64,000 nt of DNA from an uncultured Porphyromonadaceae bacterium (GCA_937891845.1 CALATP010000053.1:3709-67708); one strand, 5' to 3'. Counted from the first letter of the stretch, positions 99-11,867 are shown. Notes: generated from the letters alone by a model not told the origin. Made by a program: numbers and translations.

Positions 99-1358
99 AT
101 GAAGAAATTGTATGTATATGCCGATTTTGATTGGCTCAAGGATATTGAACTCATTGGAGAACTTGGCTACGAATCGCTTCGTGGCTCGGACAGTTATAGT
201 TTCAAGTTTGCCGATAGTTGGATTAAAAAATATAATGCCATCACCTTAAGTGAAGATCTTAACAACTATCCGGGGATACAATATACCCAACCGAATAAAG
301 ATATCTTCGGCTGCTTTGCCGATGCACTGCCAGACAGATGGGGGCGCACTCTTCTCCTCCGTCGTGAACAAATTTTGGCACAAGAGGAGAGCAGACCAGT
401 TCGCCGACTATCATCGTTTGACTTCTTGACGGGTATTGATGACTTTTCCCGTATGGGCGGATTCCGTTTCAAAGAAACGCCTGATGGTGAGTTCATAAAC
501 GCTGACAACTCTTTGCGTATTCCACCATTGACAGACTTGCGTGAACTCATTGCAGCGAGTAAAGAGATTGAGAAAAGTGAGGAGACCAATGCACTCCCCG
601 AAAAAAGATGGATTGCTCAACTTGTGCAACCGGGCTCTTCGCTCGGTGGTGCTCGCCCCAAAGCAAATGTTGTAGATACGGACCGCAGTATATATGTCGC
701 AAAGTTCCCATCATTGAAGGATGACTACGATGCAGGATTGTGGGAACATCTCTGCCATCTATTAGCCAAAAATGTGGGCATAAACGCTGCCGAAACAAAG
801 GTGATTAAAACAAACGATAAGCATCACACGCTTCTTTCTCGTCGTTTTGATAGAACGGATAGCGGCAAACGAATACATTTTGCATCTGCAATGACATTGC
901 TCGGGTTAAATGATGGCGACAACGCTACAACAGGACACGGATATATTGACATTGTTGATTTTATCATTAGCGGTTGCACCGATGTTGACGCGAACTTGCG
1001 AGAACTATTCCGCCGAGTTGCATTCAATATATGTGTCGGCAATAGCGACGACCATTTCCGCAATCATGGTTTTTTACTTACTGCAAAAGGTTGGACTCTT
1101 TCGCCTGCATACGATATGAACCCGACACTGAACGACCATCAAAGTTTGCTCATTAATAGCAAGACCAACAAAGCAGATTTGTCAATTCTGCTTGACTCGT
1201 GCGAGGAGTATATGCTCACCCCAGAGGTTGCCAAGGGCATAATCAACGAGGTTGTAACTGCTGTCAAAGATTGGCGAGTATTAGCAAATAGATTGGGTAT
1301 TGCCAAGCGAGAAATGAGTTTGTTTGAAGGTGTGTTTGATAATAGGATTAAGTTATAA
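99..1358 (+). CDS. hipA: HipA-family serine/threonine kinase toxin (type II TA), full length with N-terminal coupling domain
   Basis: 419-aa ORF. Motifs: SSLGGARPKANV (HipA P-loop-like), RRVAFNICVGNSDDHFRNHGFLL (catalytic D-x-H-x-x-N loop), SPAYDMNP. AAGGAG at 84-89 lies upstream of the ATG. Confidence 0.85.
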   Translation: MKKLYVYADFDWLKDIELIGELGYESLRGSDSYSFKFADSWIKKYNAITLSEDLNNYPGIQYTQPNKDIFGCFADALPDRWGRTLLLRREQILAQEESRPVRRLSSFDFLTGIDDFSRMGGFRFKETPDGEFINADNSLRIPPLTDLRELIAASKEIEKSEETNALPEKRWIAQLVQPGSSLGGARPKANVVDTDRSIYVAKFPSLKDDYDAGLWEHLCHLLAKNVGINAAETKVIKTNDKHHTLLSRRFDRTDSGKRIHFASAMTLLGLNDGDNATTGHGYIDIVDFIISGCTDVDANLRELFRRVAFNICVGNSDDHFRNHGFLLTAKGWTLSPAYDMNPTLNDHQSLLINSKTNKADLSILLDSCEEYMLTPEVAKGIINEVVTAVKDWRVLANRLGIAKREMSLFEGVFDNRIKL

Positions 1359-1375
1359 GATTAAGGAGGTTTATT

Positions 1376-1777
1376 ATGTACGATGACAACAATGATATAA
1401 AGAAAAGACAAGTAGAAGTTCTCAAAGAAGGTTTAGAACTACAGAATGATGTAAACGAATTTGCAAAAGAAATAAATAAGGGCATTTCTGATATAAACTA
1501 TGCTTTATTTGGTAATAATATAGTACAGATGCGTGAGTGTGCTATTTCAATTAAAAGAAAATACCCACTATTTTATTGTTATCTCCCTAAGCAAGTTCTT
1601 CCATTCATACCTTCTATTCCAATTGAAGATATGGAATATGGACAAATACGCACAGTCCTTATAGCAGAGATTAATGCACTGCGAAATATGGTAGATGATT
1701 ATGGATTATCGCAAGGTATTAAGAAGGGTTTAGAACTTGCAGTAAAATGGCGTATAGAAGATATTATGAAAAAATAA
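1376..1777 (+). CDS. hypothetical protein (133 aa, predicted helical), apparently co-transcribed with hipA
   Basis: ORF starts 17 nt after the hipA stop and is preceded by AAGGAGG at 1363-1369. No recognisable family. Confidence 0.5.
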   Translation: MYDDNNDIKKRQVEVLKEGLELQNDVNEFAKEINKGISDINYALFGNNIVQMRECAISIKRKYPLFYCYLPKQVLPFIPSIPIEDMEYGQIRTVLIAEINALRNMVDDYGLSQGIKKGLELAVKWRIEDIMKK

Positions 1778-1791
1778 GATTGCAGTTCCCA

Positions 1792-1821
1792 TTTGTATAT
1801 AACAATAATTATATACCTTTG
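1792..1821 (+). promoter_or_regulatory. candidate Bacteroides-type promoter (TTTG N18 TAccTTTG)
   Basis: TTTG at 1792-1795 and TACCTTTG at 1814-1821, in an ORF-free gap and about 170 nt upstream of a terminator hairpin. Confidence 0.3.
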
Positions 1822-1992
1822 CATCAAAGTAGGAACTCGACTCTGCGAGACACTGCAAAATGGTGCAGAATTTAGGTGGAGCAATAGCGGGAGATTACGT
1901 TTGTTGCGATTCTTTAACGCAAAGATATAGAGCCATTTAGAAATGAAACTCGTTTTCTGGTGGCACCACAGCAAAGAAAAGCAAAACAACGT

Positions 1993-2032
1993 AAAATCCT
2001 GATTTTCAACGAAAATCGGGATTTTTTATTTT
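1993..2032 (+). terminator. rho-independent terminator-like hairpin
   Basis: 14-bp stem, AAAATCCTGATTTT (1993-2006) / AAAATCGGGATTTT (2012-2025), with one G-U pair and loop CAACG, followed by TTATTTT. Confidence 0.6.
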
Positions 2033-2429
2033 CTCATCCTGACAATACATCTTACACTTCACACTCCCCCAACTACAATGATAGAGATATCTTAGATGAA
2101 ACAATACGCAAAGTTTGTAATTATTATGAATACAATGTAAGTGAACACAATTTACTAGTAAATTTGCTACTAAATATTTTTGAGTGCAAAAATTGAGCAA
2201 CTTACCACAATAGAAACAGAACTACTATAAAAAATGCAGCAATAGTTAATAAAATTTCAAAACCAAAGTTTGTTGCAGAATAAAATGTCTATGTTTATAG
2301 AATATAGACAGCTTTCGCTATGAAAATATTTAAGCGAGCTCAATCATTCTCGCTTGTTTATTACTATATTTGCCATAAAATGATTGCAAGAAAAACTCCT
2401 GTGTTTATAATGTTTCTTTATTACATAGT

Positions 2430-3542
2430 ATGGAATATAGTATAGGATTCAAAGATTTACCATTCATTCCCGAGGCGAATCAAGTTGTTTATGTCGAAAA
2501 TACATTTGACAAGAGGGTTAATGATTTTGTTATACACAATTATGACCTATTGTGTGCTGAATTCATAAAGCACAAGTTGGACTTTGTCTATCTTCCATTT
2601 TATTTCAATACACCCACACAGGAAGAGAAGGTGCGGTATTATGTTCCGTATTTAGTTTCTCAAATAAATAAACTAGGTACTATAAGCAACTCTTTTTTGC
2701 TCAACTATATGGCGCGTCCCGAGAATAGGTCCAAGATACAGCCATCTCTTCTTTCCTATTCACAAAAAGAAGATGCCGAGTGGATTTTCTCGGGGTTTAC
2801 TCTTGATGATATGATTGACGACAATGCAGATGTATCATCTATTGTCGAAAGAGTAATAGGCAAGAGGAAGGGGGTAGAAGAATATAAAATGGCTGATATT
2901 CGCTTCAGATCTGTAAGTGAAGACGACATATTAAGTGATGCGAATGAACAAGCTAATCACAAAGCTAAGATTATGATGCATAGATTAGATTTGGGATCGC
3001 TTTTTGGTAAAGAGTATACCGACGAACAGGATGCTGAAGATGATATAGACAGGATATTAATTGACCTAAAAACTACCATAGAGACCTTAAGACTGCGAGG
3101 AGTGGCATTGGGCGCAATACACGAATTTATAGACAAGCAAGAACCTATATCACCGCTTGTGATAACAGAAGACTTGCGTCTATTTCTGCCATTATACAAT
3201 AATATAGAGATAGAATTGAGTGCGCAGAAAAAGGCTTTGTTCTTCTTATTTCTGAATCATCCCGAAGGTATTGTGTTGCAGCGTTTGGATGAGTATCATA
3301 GCGAGTTGATGAATTACTACAAGCAGACTAATAAAGGTGTGCTTACCCCTAAAATGGAAAGGAGTATGAGAAGACTTGAGGAGTATGGGAATAACCAATT
3401 ATATGTAGTAATTGCTCGCATCCGAGAGGCTTTTTGTACAAAATTTGATGAGCGGTTGGCTCGCAATTATTATATTAGCGGCGAGAAGGGACTGCCCTAT
3501 AGTATACCTCTCAATCCCGACTTGATTAAATGGGAGGATTGA
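2430..3542 (+). CDS. hypothetical protein (370 aa), ORFan; acidic central region
   Basis: Long ORF with coding-like composition, own upstream TATATTTG box (2365-2372) and own terminator (3573-3606). No family recognised. Confidence 0.55.
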   Translation: MEYSIGFKDLPFIPEANQVVYVENTFDKRVNDFVIHNYDLLCAEFIKHKLDFVYLPFYFNTPTQEEKVRYYVPYLVSQINKLGTISNSFLLNYMARPENRSKIQPSLLSYSQKEDAEWIFSGFTLDDMIDDNADVSSIVERVIGKRKGVEEYKMADIRFRSVSEDDILSDANEQANHKAKIMMHRLDLGSLFGKEYTDEQDAEDDIDRILIDLKTTIETLRLRGVALGAIHEFIDKQEPISPLVITEDLRLFLPLYNNIEIELSAQKKALFFLFLNHPEGIVLQRLDEYHSELMNYYKQTNKGVLTPKMERSMRRLEEYGNNQLYVVIARIREAFCTKFDERLARNYYISGEKGLPYSIPLNPDLIKWED

Positions 3543-3572
3543 TTCCTTAATAAGAAAACGTATTAAAAACAT

Positions 3573-3606
3573 AAAGCAAGCTTTGCAAGGCTTGCTTTTT
3601 TGTTTT
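3573..3606 (+). terminator. rho-independent terminator
   Basis: AAAGCAAGC (3573-3581) / GCTTGCTTT (3590-3598), 9-bp stem, followed by a T-run. Confidence 0.65.
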
Positions 3607-3623
3607 CCTCGTCATTATCGGTA

Positions 3624-3674
3624 TATATCAATACATTTGCAATACAACTCTTAGTTGTTAAATGTATTGATATA
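3624..3674. promoter_or_regulatory. 51-nt composite palindrome (15-bp perfect arms plus inner 6-bp stem) overlapping a -7-like box; candidate operator
   Basis: TATATCAATACATTT (3624-3638) is the exact reverse complement of AAATGTATTGATATA (3660-3674). Inner stem is ACAACT (3644-3649) / AGTTGT (3653-3658). TACATTTG at 3632-3639 lies inside the left arm. The next ATG is at 3701. Confidence 0.6.
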
Positions 3675-3700
3675 AAAATAAATAGAAAAGAATACTAACT

Positions 3701-5062
3701 ATGAATATTATTTACTCAAAAAAGGATTCTGTCGACAAAGAGCAGGCCAATTGGATACGACAAATGGAGTATATACATAGTCTATGTGTTGATTTTCGAT
3801 TGTCTTGCTATAACTATAATGGCAAATGGGGTGTATGGCAAACCTTAAGAGATGAAAGAATACTTGTAGATCCATTGAGTTTGGTAAATTCATTGTTTGT
3901 TGATGATACCTACAGCATCTTTATATCGGATGAAGCACAGAAACGCAGCTCGTGTTGGGTGGATATACGCAAGGATTTTTTCTGTATGACTTGGAACACA
4001 AACCACCCTGACTCTCCGATAAAAAAGCAGTTAATGTTCCGATTTGATGAGTATATAGCCCAAATAGCAACATCAGTTGGGCAACTCTATGATGTGATGA
4101 AAGCTGGAGAGACCGTATGTTATAATAGGTATGACCTAAATCTTGAAGCACTTGAGACAGCTGTAGCTCAATTGAGAATAAAGTCGGTACAACCCAATGT
4201 GTATCGTTTAAGAGCCTGCGACGTGGTGGAAGAGCGGTTCGATTTTACTCCATTATGTAGTGATGAATACCGCATAGGCATAGGAGATAGGCACTTTACA
4301 ACATTTATGGTTGGCGACCTAGAGTTGATACGCTATCAACTTGAAAGTATTTTTTATGGCGAAAATGCCACAATTAAAGTTGCCTATGAATATGATGAGA
4401 CAGTAATGAAGATTGAACATAGAAGTATATTGGATGAGATAATTCGTACAAATGAGGGCTATCGGTATACATACAAAGATTATGCAAAGGTAACGATACA
4501 ACCCAATTCCTTTGTACAAACACCAATAATAGCAGGCTATTGCAACTATACAGATACTATCCGTACATTCTATGAGGGATTGTTGCGTATGGCATTACTT
4601 CACGACAAAAAGGAGTATGATTATATTCCCGGGTGCATAGAGGCGTATAATATGTGTAAATCGCCTTTGATAGAAACTTTCTTGAACAACAATAAACGAG
4701 ATAGTTGTAAATCGAGCATAAGGCAGGTGCGAATAAAGGAAATTGTAACCATAAGCCCCGATTATGATTATTTTCTAATAAATCAGGAAAATTATACCAT
4801 CGACCTTGGAGATTTGCCTGATGAACAAGGCAACCCAATAGTAATGCCAGAGTTGGAAACGTGGCAAAGCGAGATAAAGCATCTTATTGTCGAGGCCGCA
4901 GTGGGTAGAGATGTATTTTTCGATTGGGCTGACTGGCACAGGCGTGGCATAGAACTTGCCAAACGGTTACGTAAGCAATTGACTACATACTATGATTTGT
5001 GGTACAGTGCACCAAGCGAAGATAAAAGCGGTATAATAAAAGACAAGATTCTAATTATATAA
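3701..5062 (+). CDS. hypothetical protein (453 aa); long member of an island-specific paralog family with a conserved C-terminal module
   Basis: Residues ~190-440 align by eye with the 355-aa protein at 7744-8811 (GDRHF..ELIRYQLESI / FYEGLLRMAL / YNMCKSPLIETFL / IDLGDL..PELETW..DWADWHRRGIELAKRLRKQL..YDLWY). Confidence 0.7.
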   Translation: MNIIYSKKDSVDKEQANWIRQMEYIHSLCVDFRLSCYNYNGKWGVWQTLRDERILVDPLSLVNSLFVDDTYSIFISDEAQKRSSCWVDIRKDFFCMTWNTNHPDSPIKKQLMFRFDEYIAQIATSVGQLYDVMKAGETVCYNRYDLNLEALETAVAQLRIKSVQPNVYRLRACDVVEERFDFTPLCSDEYRIGIGDRHFTTFMVGDLELIRYQLESIFYGENATIKVAYEYDETVMKIEHRSILDEIIRTNEGYRYTYKDYAKVTIQPNSFVQTPIIAGYCNYTDTIRTFYEGLLRMALLHDKKEYDYIPGCIEAYNMCKSPLIETFLNNNKRDSCKSSIRQVRIKEIVTISPDYDYFLINQENYTIDLGDLPDEQGNPIVMPELETWQSEIKHLIVEAAVGRDVFFDWADWHRRGIELAKRLRKQLTTYYDLWYSAPSEDKSGIIKDKILII

Positions 5063-5070
5063 AGAAGGAA

Positions 5071-5535
5071 GTGACTATAAAAGAGAGGATTATTAAATTT
5101 ATCAAAAGAAAGGATATTACGCAGAAGTTTTTTTGTGACAAGTTGGGTGTGTTGCATAATTACATTACAACCATTAACAAGTCTATACCATCTGATAGAT
5201 TGGTCCAGATAATAGAGCTATACCCAGACCTCAATATAGATTGGTTGCTAACCGGTCAAGGAGAGATGCTGCGAGAGGTGAAGCAAAATGATAATGCACA
5301 ACCTGCTTTGTCGGTGGATGTGTTGGCTTATTTGCGCGAGAAAGATAGCGAACTCCGCGCAAAAGATGATGAGATAAGAGAGCTTCGTGCGCGTATAGAT
5401 GAACTTACACGCGAACTTCACGAACGCGAACTAGAGATTGTAGAACTTAAAAAAAGAGAACCACCTTGTGGCGAAGCGTGCCGATGTTGTGGCATCATCG
5501 CAAAAGGTTGGTTGAGAGTGAGGATAAAGGAATAA
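5071..5535 (+). CDS. helix-turn-helix protein of the phage CI-repressor-like type with a coiled-coil and a Cys-rich C-terminal tail
   Basis: N-terminus ..ITQKFFCDKLGVLHNYITTINK..IDWLLTGQGEML is typical of Bacteroidales CI-type HTH proteins. This is followed by a heptad-like ELRAKDDEIRELRARIDELTRELHERELEIVELKK and CGEACRCCG. GTG start at 5071, 8 nt after the preceding stop. Confidence 0.7.
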   Translation: MTIKERIIKFIKRKDITQKFFCDKLGVLHNYITTINKSIPSDRLVQIIELYPDLNIDWLLTGQGEMLREVKQNDNAQPALSVDVLAYLREKDSELRAKDDEIRELRARIDELTRELHERELEIVELKKREPPCGEACRCCGIIAKGWLRVRIKE

Positions 5536-5559
5536 ACAACCAATAAAAATAAAAAGGAT

Positions 5560-6096
5560 ATGAAAAAAGAATTAAAAGATTTAACAATAGCAGTTGGAGG
5601 CTTTATTTTAATTGAAGGATTGGGAATATTGGCAATTATGTTGTTGGATGGATTAGATGGCAAAATATATAGTGCGACAATTAAAGCAATTACAACGACA
5701 ATGGCTGCGTGTTTATGTGGATTGTGCTACTATGTTTACTCTGTGATTAAGTCTTTATTTAACCTCAAAATTAAAAAACACAGTTGTAAGCATCTCGAAA
5801 CAATATTACACAGCGGTTGTAAAACATTAGGGAAAGAGGAGGTGCAACAATTGTATGATATTGCATTTGGTGATAATGATGTTGCAATAGAATGGATGAA
5901 TGAAAACCAAGAAATAAGAAATAAGCTCAACAAGAAAATTCTATATTATGATTTGTCGCAAAGTGAAAAAGCGGAGTTAAAAGAAAAATATGATGTAATA
6001 AATAAAAGGTCGGATATTGTGTTTTATTTAAGGTTTTACAAAAGACAAAGTTATGAAGTTGATGAGATATACAATAAAATATTAAATCAATATTAA
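5560..6096 (+). CDS. hypothetical membrane protein (178 aa, two N-terminal TM helices, helical soluble C-terminus)
   Basis: Hydrophobic stretches IAVGGFILIEGLGILAIMLL and AITTTMAACLCGLCYYVYSVI. Tightly packed in the operon. Confidence 0.5.
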   Translation: MKKELKDLTIAVGGFILIEGLGILAIMLLDGLDGKIYSATIKAITTTMAACLCGLCYYVYSVIKSLFNLKIKKHSCKHLETILHSGCKTLGKEEVQQLYDIAFGDNDVAIEWMNENQEIRNKLNKKILYYDLSQSEKAELKEKYDVINKRSDIVFYLRFYKRQSYEVDEIYNKILNQY

Positions 6097-6098
6097 TT

Positions 6099-6344
6099 AT
6101 GAAAAAGATTATTATTACAATGTTAATGCTTATAGCCGGGATGTCCGGTATAGTAAGCGTCGATGCACAAGATTATGATGCATCGGCCAGTAAAGTGTGG
6201 ATATGTGTAAGTCCTAATGCCAAGCGTTACCATAGAGATTACGACTGCAAGGGATTGCAAAGCTGCAAGCACGACATTATAGAAGTGTCGGTAGCCGAAG
6301 CACAAGATAGAGGATTGACAAAGTGTAAAATGTGCTACGACTAA
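6099..6344 (+). CDS. small secreted Cys/His-rich protein (81 aa)
   Basis: Signal-peptide-like N-terminus MKKIIITMLMLIAGMSGIVSVDAQ. Mature part has a C..YH..YDC..L..C......A...G...C..C pattern resembling Ada-type/zinc-ribbon-like YHxxxC...CxxC motifs. Starts 2 nt after the upstream stop. Confidence 0.55.
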   Translation: MKKIIITMLMLIAGMSGIVSVDAQDYDASASKVWICVSPNAKRYHRDYDCKGLQSCKHDIIEVSVAEAQDRGLTKCKMCYD

Positions 6345-6368
6345 TGTGCTACCTTTTGTGCTACCTTT
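6345..6368. repeat. perfect 12-nt tandem duplication TGTGCTACCTTT x2
   Basis: Copies at 6345-6356 and 6357-6368, directly after the stop codon. A third TGTGCTAC lies at 6331-6338 inside the CDS end. Confidence 0.8.
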
Positions 6369-6511
6369 AGCTAATTATCGTTGTAAGTAATTGATAATAA
6401 ATATATTCTGATACTCCCCATAGGTGTACGAAGATTTAAGATAATTAGTAATTGTAACACGCTATAAATAAGATAGTTAAGCACATCTTGTTATAGTTTA
6501 AATTGGAGTTG

Positions 6512-6563
6512 TGACACACAAAAGGTAACACAGAATAACCCCAAATAACATCTTTGTGTGTCA
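6512..6563. repeat. 11-bp perfect inverted repeat with 30-nt spacer between the two island operons
   Basis: TGACACACAAA (6512-6522) / TTTGTGTGTCA (6553-6563), followed by TTTTG. Confidence 0.6.
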
Positions 6564-6657
6564 TTTTGTGATACCCCTAAAATTACTAATTATATATGAA
6601 GTTATACTAGACAAAGCATAGACTAATTGTAAATATACCATTAAAAAGGAGGATACT

Positions 6658-7014
6658 ATGGAAATCGAAAAAAGATGGATGAAAAAATGGATTGAGTGGT
6701 TGCTTAATATAAGCATTTTTTTGACTGCGTTTGATTTTATCAAGTTGCTTGTGGCAATTCAATATTTGACTGTTGTAGAACTTGTATTCAGCACTCTAAC
6801 TGGTGTGATGAGTATTGCCGGTTGCATTATGATACTCTACACACAAAAAAAGAGGTATGGAATAATATTATTCTTTACTAGTATTTTGCTATCATTGGTC
6901 ATCCTCTACAATGAGTGGTATCTAGTAGTAGGAAAACTTGCTTTATGGGGTATATTGCTTGGTGTAGTAAAATATAAAGGCAAGAGTGTTATTGAGGTTT
7001 GTTTTTCTGAATAG
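6658..7014 (+). CDS. hypothetical small membrane protein (118 aa, 3-4 TM)
   Basis: Strong AAGGAGG at 6646-6652. Hydrophobic segments (LLNISIFLTAFDFIKLLVAI, LTGVMSIAGCIMILY, GIILFFTSILLSLVILY, LALWGILLGVV). Confidence 0.5.
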   Translation: MEIEKRWMKKWIEWLLNISIFLTAFDFIKLLVAIQYLTVVELVFSTLTGVMSIAGCIMILYTQKKRYGIILFFTSILLSLVILYNEWYLVVGKLALWGILLGVVKYKGKSVIEVCFSE

Positions 7015-7028
7015 AATTTTATTGAGCT

Positions 7029-7658
7029 ATGAAAATTGATGATAATTCGAACTATATAAAATATGAAATCAAAAAAGGCAAAGAGTGTGCCTATATGTCT
7101 CACTATGGCGAGGTATGGGAAGATGGGTTTGCAGTAGAAAATTATGATATTTCTAATAATAATATATACTATGAAGATGCTGTTTGGAATGGACATTCTG
7201 CACACATCGATAATTGTTGGAAACGAATCCTTGCAAGGGACTTTAATCGTTGGAGAGATGAGATAAATAAAACAAAGCAGAACCTTATTGATAAGGGCAC
7301 AAGAGCAGGTACAGAAATTGTCAAGGAGTTGAAGGAGGGCGATTATGTCTTCATTGCTGTGCATCCTTATGATTTGGAAGATGAATTTGAAAGAATAGAG
7401 TATTGCTTTCTTGAGGTTGATTCTGTTGACAACAATTTTGTATGTGGCAAACAGATGTATATAAGCACTTATTTTTTTGCTTACAGTTATAATAAAATGG
7501 AGCTAAAGGGTGAGGATTATTGGTTAGATTGTGCATTGGAAGAAAATAATGTGATACGCATAGATAAAAGTGAGTTTTATCTCGCAGTTGAGGATTTTCA
7601 CCGGCTTACTACAAAGCTTATGTCCGAAATAAAGAAGATGTATCACGGTATATTGTAA
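7029..7658 (+). CDS. hypothetical protein (209 aa), ORFan
   Basis: ORF begins 14 nt after the preceding stop. No family recognised. Confidence 0.5.
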   Translation: MKIDDNSNYIKYEIKKGKECAYMSHYGEVWEDGFAVENYDISNNNIYYEDAVWNGHSAHIDNCWKRILARDFNRWRDEINKTKQNLIDKGTRAGTEIVKELKEGDYVFIAVHPYDLEDEFERIEYCFLEVDSVDNNFVCGKQMYISTYFFAYSYNKMELKGEDYWLDCALEENNVIRIDKSEFYLAVEDFHRLTTKLMSEIKKMYHGIL

Positions 7659-7746
7659 AAGTAATAGTCCTATTATTAATGTGCTATATCAAACGCTGTG
7701 TCACAAGAGAAGTATATTATATGTTGAATTATAAAAGAAAATAGTG

Positions 7747-8811
7747 ATGGCTTTTCACGAAAATTTTCAAGAGGAATTTAATGTTTACTACACACCCAAA
7801 TGGTTTAAGTTGCGAAGCGAACTCTATGCCGAGGCGTGTGAGTGGAAGCCCCGCAATCCGGATGAAATCTTCTTCCACTTTAAAAATCTCGATGCGGGTT
7901 GGATGGATTTTGACGTTTATGTTAATGGAGAAAAGAGGCACGAGTGTTATTTTAGTGCTGTTTTTAATCCTTTTCATAATCTGAAGGTGTGGATGGAAGA
8001 TATTGTTAATGATTTTAAGATGAGCAGTACACTGCCTATAAATATAGAGGGGCGCACGTTGATATTTCATTATGAGAATATAAAATTGTGCGAAATCTCT
8101 GATAGACGTCGGTGGATTAGCAATGAGAGGGATAAGGACGAATGGGAGTTAACCGATGCCTATACACATCCTACCATAGGATTGTTTTATATCTATGATT
8201 CGGCTTGCAAAACCTTACCGGTTGTGTGTATGTGCCAAGCAAAACAACTGTTATCGTGCCTATATAATGCACTTTTGCGTTATGCTATAGGCCCACATAG
8301 TGAGAAAATAGCTCAAGAGTGGTACGACGATGACTATGATAATTGGTACTTTTATAATACCATCAAATCACCGTTGATTGAGTGGTTTATATACTCAAAA
8401 TGGGGATATAGGCATCAAGTTCCTCAATTCACAGCTACATCGGTAATAAAGGAGGCTATACATATGTGGGCCGAATGGGGTGATGGCCTTTTCTGGAGCA
8501 ATGGACTTTGCTGTGGTAATGCCGAGGGGTTTGTGGTAAAAACGGATAATAAGCGAATAGATCTTACTGATATTCCGGAGCTACGAGTATGGTATGACGA
8601 GTTTGACAATAGTTATTGTGAGGAGAAATGGTCGGATGACAAGTATCAAGAATGGCTTAAAAGAGGATGGGAACTAGCTCAACTTGTAAGAAAGAAGCTA
8701 CCTGATAGTATCGATCTCTTCTACCAGTGGAAAGAATACTCACTACAGTGTAACATTCAAGGTGATAGCGATATACCATTTATAGTCCCTAATGAGAATA
8801 ATAATTTATAG
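7747..8811 (+). CDS. hypothetical protein (354/355 aa); short member of the island paralog family
   Basis: The ORF track starts at GTG 7744; the first ATG is at 7747. It aligns with the 453-aa protein over most of its length and carries the C-terminal module IDLTDIPELRVWYDEF..YQEWLKRGWELAQLVRKKLPDSIDLFY. Confidence 0.7.
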   Translation: MAFHENFQEEFNVYYTPKWFKLRSELYAEACEWKPRNPDEIFFHFKNLDAGWMDFDVYVNGEKRHECYFSAVFNPFHNLKVWMEDIVNDFKMSSTLPINIEGRTLIFHYENIKLCEISDRRRWISNERDKDEWELTDAYTHPTIGLFYIYDSACKTLPVVCMCQAKQLLSCLYNALLRYAIGPHSEKIAQEWYDDDYDNWYFYNTIKSPLIEWFIYSKWGYRHQVPQFTATSVIKEAIHMWAEWGDGLFWSNGLCCGNAEGFVVKTDNKRIDLTDIPELRVWYDEFDNSYCEEKWSDDKYQEWLKRGWELAQLVRKKLPDSIDLFYQWKEYSLQCNIQGDSDIPFIVPNENNNL

Positions 8812-8823
8812 TACCGCAATATT

Positions 8824-10419
8824 ATGAAGAACAAAAAACATCCCAATATTCAAGATTTATATAGCATTGAAGATATAAATAAAGCAAAGGCTTGCTATAA
8901 ACTCACCGGATATTATCCAATTTCGTTGATGCCCGGTGATCAAGAGGAGGTACTAGGCAACACTAGGTCTTTGGGTGTCTACAATCTTTCTAATACCTCA
9001 CAAAGGACTTACACTCTGAAGTATTGGTATGCAGTGCAGGTATGGAATACTGCAATAGCAATAATAAGTAATAGTATCGTTGGGAATGAACTGATATATA
9101 TTCTACCCCATTGGGAGGATAGGGATGACTCTTTCCGAAAACTTGTTAATAATGATAAGTTTACTCCCGATATGGTTGGGAAACTATGGAAGTTATTAGA
9201 AGATCTTGCAAACTCCGGCAATATAAAGGTACACGAGGGGTTCTTTATTGAGAATGCTACAAAAGGTTATTGGGGCGCTCCTTCAAAATGTCACATAGAG
9301 ATGAACTGCCGATTCTACATCAACATAATTCTTGATACAGAAAGCTTCCACAATCACACATTCCCAATTGAAAATATTTGGGAGTACAAGTTTAACAAAA
9401 AGAACAAAAGCTACAAATGGGATGAGATAAAACACCTCTTTTGTGAAGTGTCACTATCCGTTCGCGAGTTGCTCAATCACAAATGGATGAATAGAATAAA
9501 TAAGTATGACAAAGAACTTATAGAGGCTTGTTCTAATTTTGATATTGAAGGAGTAAAAAGAGCTGTTGAGAGAGGAGCTAACGTCAACACCCTTAGCAAT
9601 ATGGACGAAACACCATTAACCCAAGCTATTGGTATGTACAATGATTGCTTTGCATATAAAGATTATACAGAGACTGAACGAGAAGTGATTGAAAACGAAA
9701 ATTATCACAAACTATTACCCATAATAGATTATCTACTCAAGCAAGGTGCCGATATAAATCTTTTTGGATATGATGGAGATTCACCTCTTGTTGCTGCCTA
9801 TTACACACGTTCTACTCGTTTGGTAGAATATCTATTAAAGAAAGGAGCCAATCCCAATGTAAATTGTCATTTGACAGACTCTGCCAACGAAAGTATATTT
9901 TGTAGTTCTATATTGAGTATTATTTATTATTTATATAGCGATGATGATGGAATTGGTGAAGATATAAAGCGTGTCGTGAAACAATATGGTGGCAGGCTAT
10001 ACTATTTCGGCTACAATCCTATCAAGAAGGAGTATTCCGGCAGAGCTTTTGTCGTGTTTCATCCTACAGAAAACGCCTTGTTTCTGGATTGCGCCTATGA
10101 TAATTGTGGTGACAGCAAAACACTACACATAGAGGTAAGCGAAAATGAGTTTGTAGATATAGATATATCTACAGTAACAGGGCTTGAAGAATGGCATCAA
10201 GAGTTTATAAATCTTTTTTATAATAATTCCGATAGGAGTGACGAAAAGTGGCGCGATTGGTTCGACCTAGGACTTAAATTAGCTCGGAAAGTAAAGTTGC
10301 TCTTGCCCGACAATGTAGATTTATACTATCTGCGTGATAGCAATCCACTTTTCATAATTCGCAATGATGGCAGTAAACAGTGGAACTATTACAATGGGAA
10401 ACATATTTGGGTAGAATAA
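8824..10419 (+). CDS. ankyrin-repeat protein (531 aa) ending in the same C-terminal module as the two paralogs
   Basis: ANK-like repeats at ~aa 228-347 (..GVKRAVERGANVNTLSNMDETPLTQAI.. / ..IIDYLLKQGADINLFGYDGDSPLVAAY.. / ..LVEYLLKKGANPNV). C-terminus DIDISTVTGLEEWHQEF..KWRDWFDLGLKLARKVKLLLPDNVDLYY. Confidence 0.75.
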   Translation: MKNKKHPNIQDLYSIEDINKAKACYKLTGYYPISLMPGDQEEVLGNTRSLGVYNLSNTSQRTYTLKYWYAVQVWNTAIAIISNSIVGNELIYILPHWEDRDDSFRKLVNNDKFTPDMVGKLWKLLEDLANSGNIKVHEGFFIENATKGYWGAPSKCHIEMNCRFYINIILDTESFHNHTFPIENIWEYKFNKKNKSYKWDEIKHLFCEVSLSVRELLNHKWMNRINKYDKELIEACSNFDIEGVKRAVERGANVNTLSNMDETPLTQAIGMYNDCFAYKDYTETEREVIENENYHKLLPIIDYLLKQGADINLFGYDGDSPLVAAYYTRSTRLVEYLLKKGANPNVNCHLTDSANESIFCSSILSIIYYLYSDDDGIGEDIKRVVKQYGGRLYYFGYNPIKKEYSGRAFVVFHPTENALFLDCAYDNCGDSKTLHIEVSENEFVDIDISTVTGLEEWHQEFINLFYNNSDRSDEKWRDWFDLGLKLARKVKLLLPDNVDLYYLRDSNPLFIIRNDGSKQWNYYNGKHIWVE

Positions 10420-10706
10420 TAATAACCGCCAATAACGATAATCGGCAATCTTGTAACAATAAAACATATTGCGTATTTTTTCATAATATAATTGTGCTAT
10501 TCAAAGATATATAACAATAAATTACTCGGCAAATAGAGAACTTAAAAATGGATAAACTCGAACTCGTCTCGTTTTCACAGCGACATTATTATTGACAACT
10601 AGAATTAGAAATAGCTTGCGATAGAAGGTCTGGATGGCTGTAAAAGATATTCACAATCAAATATGCAAAGAGGTAAATCTATAAAGAACTCGTTAAAATT
10701 ATTAAT

Positions 10707-11096
10707 ATGAAGACAAATGCATTGAGACTTTTAGAGGACGTCAAGAGCCAACTTAATCAAATTAAAATACCCAATGCCGAAAAATATGAGGCTAATATAA
10801 TAGCTTTTCTCAATCAGTGCCCCCACGATCTAATATTACAAGATGCGCAAGTTAAATGGGATGAGAAAGAAGAATTTGACTTTCGTTGGGATACAGCGCA
10901 CCTTGATTGCAGATTTTCAATCGGTCTGGAGGAAACCACTTGGCACATATGGGTTGGCATTAACACCCATAACCAAAATGATGAATGCTACCAACATGGA
11001 ATTGGAGGCATAGAAATAGACGGTAATGAGGATTGCTTCGCTAAAATCTTTTATGAAACAATGGAATGGGAAATTTTAATATGCCAAAGAATGTAA
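10707..11096 (+). CDS. hypothetical protein (129 aa), ORFan, last gene before the tRNA
   Basis: ORF only; no family recognised. Confidence 0.45.
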   Translation: MKTNALRLLEDVKSQLNQIKIPNAEKYEANIIAFLNQCPHDLILQDAQVKWDEKEEFDFRWDTAHLDCRFSIGLEETTWHIWVGINTHNQNDECYQHGIGGIEIDGNEDCFAKIFYETMEWEILICQRM

Positions 11097-11160
11097 TTAT
11101 CCATCAATTATTACCAATAGCCAATCCCAATAAACACCAATAAGTAGGCAAAAATATAAA

Positions 11161-11202
11161 AGAAAAATCGCTAAGTGTTGTTTTTCAACTGCTTAGCGAT
11201 TT
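11161..11202 (-). terminator. rho-independent terminator downstream of the tRNA gene (minus strand)
   Basis: Stem ATCGCTAAG (11167-11175) / CTTAGCGAT (11192-11200). On the minus strand it is followed by TTTTTC. Confidence 0.65.
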
Positions 11203-11208
11203 GTTATG

Positions 11209-11282
11209 TGGTCCCACTTGGGCTTGAACCAAGGACCCCCTGATTATGAGTCAGATGCTCTAACCAACTGAGCTATAGGACC
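11209..11282 (-). tRNA. tRNA with CAT anticodon (elongator Met or lysidine-modified Ile2; acceptor C4-G69/C5-G68 leans towards Ile2)
   Basis: Reverse complement is GGTCCTA TA GCTC AGTTGGTTA GAGC A TCTGA CTCATAA TCAGG GGGTC CTTGG TTCAAGC CCAAG TGGGACC A. This gives a full cloverleaf with a 7-bp acceptor, GTTCAAGCC T-loop and anticodon CAT. No encoded CCA. Confidence 0.9.
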
Positions 11283-11609: not shown

Positions 11610-11867
11610 ATGAAAAATGAGATTAAAGCATACATTATGAAAAGTGAGAGGTGTTACGATATAGAGGATATAAATGAGCTTATCTCTAACTTGCCTCATC
11701 ACAAAGCTAAGATTTTGGGGATGTATCTTGCGGGTTATACTTACGACGAGATTGCGTCTATGTATATGGGTACTCCGGAATATATAAAAGATACGGTGAA
11801 TGATTGTATTACCGACCTAGAAAATCAAAGTCTTATAAGCAAACTTATGAGGATCTATTTACAATAG
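11610..11867 (+). CDS. small protein (85 aa) with possible sigma-70 region 4/LuxR-like HTH
   Basis: ..KAKILGMYLAGYTYDEIASMYMGTPEYIKDTVNDCITDL.. resembles a region-4-type HTH. AT-rich context. Confidence 0.4.
   Translation: MKNEIKAYIMKSERCYDIEDINELISNLPHHKAKILGMYLAGYTYDEIASMYMGTPEYIKDTVNDCITDLENQSLISKLMRIYLQ

Follow-up and report, generated by a model that had tools for sequence, protein, structure and literature searches.

Polymorphic toxin systems are said to be accompanied by polyimmunity loci and multi-domain immunity proteins, reportedly described by Zhang, Iyer, Aravind and co-workers in 2011-2012. The immunity domains in question reportedly occur standalone, in tandem or fused to ankyrin repeats, form clusters of paralogs, are patchily distributed and travel on mobile elements. 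We describe here a protein family with the same architectures, paralog clustering and mobile-element carriage. It is represented by three neighbouring genes in 64,000 nucleotides of DNA from an uncultured Porphyromonadaceae bacterium (GCA_937891845.1, CALATP010000053.1:3709-67708; this whole stretch is called the window, and positions are counted from its first letter). The three genes lie in an island of low guanine-plus-cytosine (GC) content, and their products, P453, P355 and P531, end in a common module. By sequence profile and predicted fold, this module is very probably a remote homolog of the immunity protein CdiI^BWH57.

CdiI^BWH57 is the 98-residue chain of the CdiA-CT/CdiI complex from Serratia marcescens BWH57 (PDB 7M5F; PMC8616854). 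It binds the BECR-fold RNase toxin domain via its β1-β2 loop and three 3-10 helices, applying a negatively charged patch to the electropositive surface of the toxin; the contacting residues are K5, D9, Y10, W16, D25 and Y98 (PMC8616854). The depositors of 7M5F found no close structural homolog of CdiI in the PDB, and its family has been described from Proteobacteria and cyanobacteria (PMC8616854). The second system to be compared, the orphan-immunity array known as rAID-1, is recognised by an XerD-like tyrosine recombinase on its 5' side (at least 44% identity to BF9343_RS08045), at least two co-directional genes with a GC content of at most 41%, and repetitive integron-like intergenic sequences (Ross et al., bioRxiv 10.1101/471110).

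The three open reading frames (ORFs) were confirmed in the ORF listing where the first-pass annotation of the window had placed them, on the positive strand. They and their parts are as follows (aa, amino acids of the protein concerned).

3701..5062, + strand: P453, an ORF with an N-terminal extension (~aa 1-135), a "core" head and a C-terminal CdiI-like module
4712..5059, + strand: CdiI-like module of P453 (aa ~338-453), placed by alignments and residue mapping; β2-β3 region shortened
7744..8811, + strand: P355, an ORF with the core head (aa 1-232) and a CdiI-like module
8440..8808, + strand: CdiI-like module of P355 (aa 233-355), placed by domain model, Foldseek and hhalign; topology β5-α2-β2
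8824..10419, + strand: P531, an ORF with a unique N-domain (aa 1-~220), ankyrin repeats and a CdiI-like module
9496..9873, + strand: ankyrin-repeat region of P531 (aa ~225-350), matched by Pfam Ank_2 (E=2.7e-9), Ank_4 and Ank
10036..10416, + strand: CdiI-like module of P531 (aa ~405-531), placed by the hidden Markov model (HMM) of the P355 family and residue mapping

In composition-adjusted BLASTP comparisons, P453 and P355 aligned with E=3e-9 (aa 269-435 against 152-327), and the alignments of P355 with P531 (E=2e-9) and of P453 with P531 (E=4e-4) were limited to the C-terminal module. All three values fall below 0.01, and the common C-terminal module noticed at first pass is significant. The P355-family profile recovered P531 with 50.5 bits (aa 416-504) and P453 with 26 bits, and matched none of the remaining ORFs of the island. 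When an HMM of the three modules was run against the six-frame translation of the whole 64-kb window, the module was absent outside P453, P355 and P531. The BLASTP, profile and six-frame results taken together, the similarity of the modules is therefore real and well beyond chance.

P453 and P355 had also been thought homologous upstream of the module. A profile of nine P453-like proteins aligned with the P355 family at an hhalign probability of 99.7%, with residues 175-437 of P453 against 39-329 of P355. P355 is therefore equivalent to P453 minus ~135 N-terminal residues, and this profile-profile alignment bears out both earlier statements. Judging from the family alignment, the true start of P355 is likely the ATG at 7747, one codon past the GTG at 7744. 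The ankyrin repeats first proposed for P531 were found by Pfam (Ank_2, as listed), and all three proteins lack signal peptides and transmembrane or hydrophobic segments, again in agreement with the first description.

The extent of the module had been set too short, at 60-70 residues. The family alignment and an AlphaFold model place it at ~100-120 aa (~115), a complete α/β domain that reaches the C-terminus of the protein. The conserved region of the P355 family opens ~30 residues before the earlier boundary, with a β-meander carrying the motif HMWAEWGDGLFW..GGCCGNAE; P531 aligns with this motif, which is partly deleted in P453. AlphaFold2 modelled full-length P355 with a predicted local distance difference test score (pLDDT) of 90.9 and a predicted template-modeling score (pTM) of 0.90. 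In the model the C-terminal part begins with five short strands; two helices follow, and then a β-hairpin whose two strands run to the end of the protein. For the isolated P355 module the scores were 92.2 (pLDDT) and 0.85 (pTM).

A Foldseek search of the PDB with the domain-only P355 model gave a single outlier, 7m5f_A, which is CdiI^BWH57 (E=1.7e-3, prob 1.00, template-modeling (TM) scores 0.55/0.66). The alignment spanned 99 columns with a root mean square deviation of 4.1, and the next PDB match had E=0.9. CdiI was found by the domain-only model and not by the full-length P355 model, which matched nothing meaningful in the PDB or BFVD (best E 0.2 and 0.027, TM <0.2). The core head of P355 (aa 1-232) had no PDB match either, and an internal duplication, with the N-terminal domain as a second, diverged module, was rejected at an hhalign probability below 2%.

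Sequence profiles led to the same protein. An hmmsearch with a profile of 55 module sequences ranked 7m5f_A first among 177,635 PDB sequences (E=1.6e-3), and the alignment ran end to end, from profile position 9 to 102 and chain position 4 to 97; the narrow profiles A3, A2 and A6 found nothing relevant among PDB sequences. We collected the CdiI^BWH57 family as 47 proteins (P0198-P0244), mostly of 92-106 aa. Its named records come from Enterobacterales, Pseudomonas and Bordetella, nearly all members of the family are annotated "hypothetical protein", and the family has no model in Pfam or NCBIfam. Compared with this family by hhalign, the module scored 95.6% (E=1.3e-8, 94 columns), the window-type profile alone 93.2% in the same register, and the P355 family's C-terminus alone 74%. 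Reversed-column and N-domain controls stayed below 1%. In the reciprocal search with the CdiI HMM, 44 module proteins, the best with E=1e-6, scored better than any reversed, shuffled or unrelated decoy.

The residues by which CdiI contacts its toxin were mapped onto the 55 module sequences. The position of D9 is D or E in 48 of the 55, that of Y10 is aromatic in 41, that of W16 is W in 41, and that of G24-D25 is G in 50 and D or N in 34. W44 and G75 of CdiI are invariant in both families. The contact positions D9, Y10, W16 and D25 thus fall on the most conserved motif of the module; K5 and Y98 are not conserved. P355 carries E-W-W-G-N at these positions, with conservative changes. P453 has D-Y-I with a deletion, so that DY alone is kept and the W16 equivalent is I, and P531 has T-E-L-G-D, in which the DY/W motif is replaced and GD alone is kept. 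Comparing contact positions alone, these differences between paralogs could reflect different toxin variants. The modules are acidic, with an isoelectric point of 4.5-4.9 (CdiI, 4.3), and 95% of the 55 lie below 6.

CdiI^BWH57 (PDB 7M5F chain A; CASP14 T1065s2) and the module share a predicted fold, end-to-end profile similarity, a W and a G in the helical part and, in the superfamily consensus, the contact motif DY-x5-W-x7-GD; both are acidic and cytoplasmic, and neither has a Pfam or NCBIfam model. They differ in setting. CdiI^BWH57 is a standalone protein of 98 aa, whereas the module described here sits behind heads of 230-400 aa and has an extra C-terminal β-hairpin. In Dickeya, a CdiI homolog directly follows an orphan cdiA-CT toxin gene, with a 4-bp overlap, whereas the module genes of Bacteroidales have no adjacent toxin. 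The CdiI^BWH57 family has been described from Proteobacteria and cyanobacteria, the module occurs here in Bacteroidales, and the identity between them is 17%. At first pass the module had been recognised as no named domain. This is right for Pfam and NCBIfam, no model of which matches it; the novelty that went with it is lower, since the module can now in large part be assigned to a characterised family.

Curated libraries say little about these proteins. When the three proteins and their neighbours were scanned against Pfam, NCBIfam, PADLOC and PHROGs, ankyrin was the sole match for the modules or heads, and a permissive Pfam scan of the 55 isolated modules gave no recurring weak match. In PADLOC-DB 2.0 there was no match for the module, the core, or the products P370, P209 and P129 of neighbouring genes; the ankyrin region of P531 matched the candidate model PDC-M72A. 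The PDB likewise gave no match for P370, P209 or P129. A word-indexed search with the three-sequence module alignment returned no matches. When the module profile was run with full HMMER against 1.84 billion representative proteins (threshold E<=1e-3), 226 of them contained the module, 97 at E<=1e-10; the family is therefore not specific to the island, as had been supposed.

Architectures were counted in the best 150 of these 226 proteins. The module is standalone in 41 (proteins of 73-170 aa), C-terminal in 77, N-terminal in 9 and internal in 9, and 14 proteins have two module matches, some of them partial. Among the non-module regions the largest cluster, of 56 segments, is the P355/P453 core, and the second, of 16, is the P531-type head with ankyrin repeats; the remainder form about two dozen small clusters or singletons. 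In the same 150 proteins Pfam detected ankyrin repeats, a DUF6578 head in one, a weak nucleoside-deoxyribosyltransferase (NDT)-like head in one, and GatB_N and Semialdhyde_dh matches, which we judged to be two probable gene-call fusions. A relationship between DUF6578 and the module was considered but rejected, DUF6578 being a separate N-terminal domain in its carrier, P0158; nothing on DUF6578 was found in the literature.

These counts bear on a question that the first-pass annotation had raised, namely whether the module is a C-terminal recognition or translocation tag, for example for loading into a type IX (T9SS) or type VI (T6SS) secretion system. The module does lie at the C-terminus of P453, P355 and P531 and of 77 of the 150, and it contains a basic helix, LAKRLRKQL. 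Against this, it is a folded domain of ~115 aa that also stands alone, at the N-terminus, internally or duplicated (41, 9, 9 and 14 of the 150). T9SS cargo requires a signal peptide, and P453, P355 and P531 have neither a signal peptide nor a hydrophobic N-terminus. Neither NCBIfam nor Pfam gave a sorting-domain match, and the module is homologous to a cytoplasmic immunity protein. The tag is effectively refuted.

P355 has 50 full-length homologs, none of them annotated. They are 224-415 aa long, mostly 346-382, and those with named records come from Bacteroidales. P355-type genes are rare, with 3 loci in 185,579 species-representative genomes, all of them metagenome-assembled genomes of uncultured Bacteroidales or Bacteroidia. 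Pattern scans of IMG/VR found neither subfamily, and a tblastn search with P355 found no match among INPHARED phages or PLSDB plasmids. No exact-sequence record was found for P531, nor for the HipA protein encoded at the start of the window.

Since the module is homologous to CdiI, P453, P355 and P531 are most likely cytoplasmic immunity proteins, and as there is no toxin gene nearby, their genes look like orphan immunity genes. The absence of a signal peptide or transmembrane segment would fit a nuclease inhibitor that acts in the cytoplasm. Each protein would bind an incoming, positively charged toxin of the nuclease type via the acidic face of the DY...W...GD loop region of its module, and this binding would protect the cell from toxins delivered by its neighbours. 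The fused heads (the core domain and the ankyrin repeats) may be additional binding or immunity modules, and the orphan genes would be kept in a horizontally acquired, co-directional, low-GC array beside a tRNA-Met gene. Immunity proteins gathered in an island had been one of the first suggestions, and it is the one favoured by the homology to CdiI and by the co-directional, low-GC array, with the function itself a prediction from sequence profile and predicted fold. Because that function rests on remote homology to one characterised protein, we consider it only fairly probable that the three are orphan immunity proteins against toxins from neighbouring bacteria.

The array in which the three genes lie has 13 listed ORFs, from 99 to 11096, all on the positive strand. 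Its GC content is 0.34-0.37 between 2 and 12 kb, compared with 0.43-0.47 in the rest of the window. Loci from elsewhere carry L numbers below. One of them, L028, is a near-identical island with the same ten genes, 98.7% identical from window position 2083 to 11212, and its contig ends where the identity stops, at 11212. Besides the genes for P453, P355 and P531, the array and its right-hand end comprise the following.

1960..2196, + strand: 78-aa ORF, remnant of a 625-aa MreB-like gene, from comparison of the window with L028 by blastn and of the 625-aa protein by blastp
2430..3542, + strand: P370, an uncharacterised protein with homologs in L004 (52%), L009 (27%) and L027; no family match
5071-5535, 5560-6096, 6099-6344 and 6658-7014: a helix-turn-helix (HTH) protein, two small predicted membrane proteins and an 81-aa protein, their order conserved in L028
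7029..7658, + strand: P209, an uncharacterised protein directly upstream of P355, with a 46% identical homolog in L004/5/7; no family match
10707..11096, + strand: P129, a small uncharacterised protein with a homolog in L020, judged by eye from N-terminal sequences; no family match
11208..11282, - strand: tRNA-Met (CAT), found by ARAGORN; its 3' end faces the island, at the right-hand end of the low-GC array

Upstream of the common part, L028 (118-1995) has an intact 625-aa gene with a weak MreB_Mbl match, where the window has HipA and P133 instead. What is left of this MreB-like gene in the window is its C-terminal end, the 78-aa ORF, and the left breakpoint of the conserved island falls at ~2083. 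Comparison of the two sequences indicates that the left edge has undergone recombination or replacement. The first gene in the window is that of a HipA-family kinase toxin (99-1358; HipA_C E=4e-48, Couple_hipA); no HipB-like partner can be seen, since the sequence before it is cut off. Of the small proteins encoded between P453 and P209, the HTH protein is phage-CI/RstR-like with a coiled-coil tail, two are predicted membrane proteins, and the 81-aa protein has a hydrophobic N-terminus and a Cys-rich C-terminus. Past the tRNA-Met gene, an 85-aa ORF (11610-11867) resembles by eye an HTH protein of the LuxR or sigma-70 region-4 type.

The island resembles the AID and rAID-1 orphan-immunity arrays in its Bacteroidales host and its co-directional, low-GC genes, which are predicted to be of immunity type and lack cognate toxins. 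Of the marks of rAID-1 it shows co-directionality and low GC only. Unlike rAID-1, it has no XerD-like recombinase, either in window positions 1-12 kb or upstream in L028, and no integron-like intergenic repeats between 1 and 13000. A repeat scan of that interval gave only short two-copy matches of chance quality, with no AID-type repeats or att duplication. The island further differs from AID and rAID-1 arrays in that its genes match no known Pfam immunity family and an HTH regulator and small membrane proteins are interspersed among them.

Several of the same genes keep company in other genomes. Within ~9 kb, L004/5/7 have homologs of P370 (52%), P453 (31%), P209 (46%), P531 (63%) and P355 (61%), in an order and orientation that differ from the window; the P531 ortholog adjoins the P355 ortholog. 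P453 homologs with 31-40% identity occur in L004 and L009, the latter having P453-, P370- and P355-like genes. P209 is encoded directly upstream of P355 in the window, and its homolog in L004 directly upstream of the P453 homolog. In L001, a standalone module gene of 127 aa directly precedes a P355-like gene. In L010 (4329-11056), two P355-like genes alternate with two DUF5618 paralogs and a BspA-type leucine-rich repeat (LRR) protein of 604 aa. These DUF5618 paralogs (211 and 214 aa) are 40% identical, and the genes form a tightly packed, co-directional run.

Such co-occurrence suggests a rival reading of the module as a homotypic docking domain, one that, in the manner of effector-associated domains, would join P453, P355 and P531 in one complex; a docking or adaptor domain was among the first proposals for the module. 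Two or three differently headed module proteins are encoded per locus in the window, L004/5/7, L009, L001 and L019, and the three window paralogs have the module in common while their heads differ. This co-occurrence of paralogs speaks for docking, and nothing else specific does. Many loci have a single module gene, the standalone and tandem forms are common and fit the behaviour of an immunity domain better, and the module is not accompanied by an NTPase or effector core. CdiI, its homolog, has a heterologous toxin as its partner, and the description of CdiI gives no indication of self-association (PMC8616854). We regard docking as very unlikely.

Other loci place the module on mobile elements. 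A module gene of L012 is part of an element with an integrase, a Toprim/DUF927 primase, ERCC4 and HU. In L020 a P129-like gene (by eye) directly precedes a module gene beside a Bacteroidetes-type integrase, and in L021 an IS110-like gene (by eye) lies near a module gene. Mobile-element carriage, the presence of several paralogs per locus, and the standalone, double-module and ankyrin-fused architectures are typical of immunity domains and support that reading of the module. As a separate observation, in L012 (7081-8852), which comes from a non-Bacteroidales marine metagenome, the gene for a double-module protein overlaps an upstream 307-aa gene by 4 bp. In Dickeya, cdiA-CT and cdiI overlap with the same geometry. 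No family match was found for the 307-aa protein.

A number of results weigh against orphan immunity, and some of them bear on the homology as well. No toxin gene was found beside the module genes in the window or in ~15 module-bearing loci, and phmmer with the Dickeya CdiA-CT sequence gave no match in the window or these loci. Pfam detected no other known immunity families in the island. P453, P355 and P531 are multi-domain proteins of 355-531 aa, as against 98 aa for CdiI, and several contact residues are lost in P531 and P453. The homology is remote, at the 17% identity given above, only one member of the CdiI family is characterised, and the narrow standalone-type profile alone scored 2.3% against that family, which is not significant. 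A module protein occurs inside a defence-type operon, in L017. Across genomes, module genes repeatedly have P370 and P209 homologs in their company, and once a P129 homolog (by eye); this recurrence could point to a multi-gene system instead of independent immunity genes. Among neighbouring genes, the BspA-type LRR protein and DUF5618 paralogs of L010, ComEC in L008 and the 307-aa protein of L012 were considered as candidate toxins, and no toxin domain was found in them.

The operon in L017 (4892-14469) is tight and encodes Peptidase_M48, an IetA-like AAA ATPase, the module protein P0070, a ClpP-like protease, a metallophosphatase and a DpdF-like helicase of 1347 aa. P0070 itself consists of the weak NDT-like head and the module. 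From sequence, this operon looks like an undescribed defence-type gene set, and it suggests another function for the module: the CdiI-like fold may have been recruited inside the cell, as a binding domain of a regulatory or antitoxin-like kind, into conflict systems (anti-phage defence or abortive infection, for instance), where it would restrain an endogenous effector or sense a phage protein and not neutralise toxins that other bacteria deliver. The position of P0070 among the ATPase, protease, metallophosphatase and helicase genes fits this. So do a Cas12a-like fragment (by eye) and an NDT-like ORF upstream of the module gene in L021, a SLOG/DprA-like neighbour in L027, the recurrence of P370 and P209 homologs with module genes, and the lack of a secreted toxin nearby. 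On the other side, no PADLOC model matches the module proteins or their recurrent partners, L017 is the single clear defence-type context, and most loci have uncharacterised or housekeeping neighbours. Interbacterial immunity is also the function of the one homolog that has been characterised (PMC8616854). We consider a regulatory role of this kind unlikely.

A further proposal takes the recurrent genes together. The proteins with a core and a CdiI-like module may form, with P370-, P209- and P129-like proteins, an undescribed multi-gene conflict system in which the CdiI-like domain serves as a toxin- or effector-recognition module on heads of a new fold. This appears slightly less likely than a regulatory role.

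No new biological principle is involved here: both arrays of orphan immunity genes and immunity proteins with several domains have precedents. What is new is a branch of the CdiI^BWH57 family in Bacteroidales that lacks annotation, the fusion of its module to ankyrin repeats and to a core head without a detectable structural relative, and the recurrent company of P370-, P209- and P129-like genes. Neither branch of the CdiI family is in curated models. Polymorphic toxin polyimmunity offers the same architectures, but the module and the core head have no Pfam models, and the association with P370 and P209 (and once with P129) is not known as a feature there.

The assignment gives a functional handle for ~226 representative clusters, mostly from uncultured gut-type Bacteroidales, which curated libraries call nothing or "hypothetical". 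A profile built from the alignments of the module and of CdiI would improve annotation, CdiI^BWH57 being without a Pfam or NCBIfam model. The three diverged paralogs would provide probes for finding cognate toxins. If immunity is indeed their function, the range of the CdiI^BWH57 family, described from Proteobacteria and cyanobacteria, widens to include Bacteroidota, and toxins akin to the CdiA-CT^BWH57 RNase with its BECR fold would be predicted to circulate among gut Bacteroidales.

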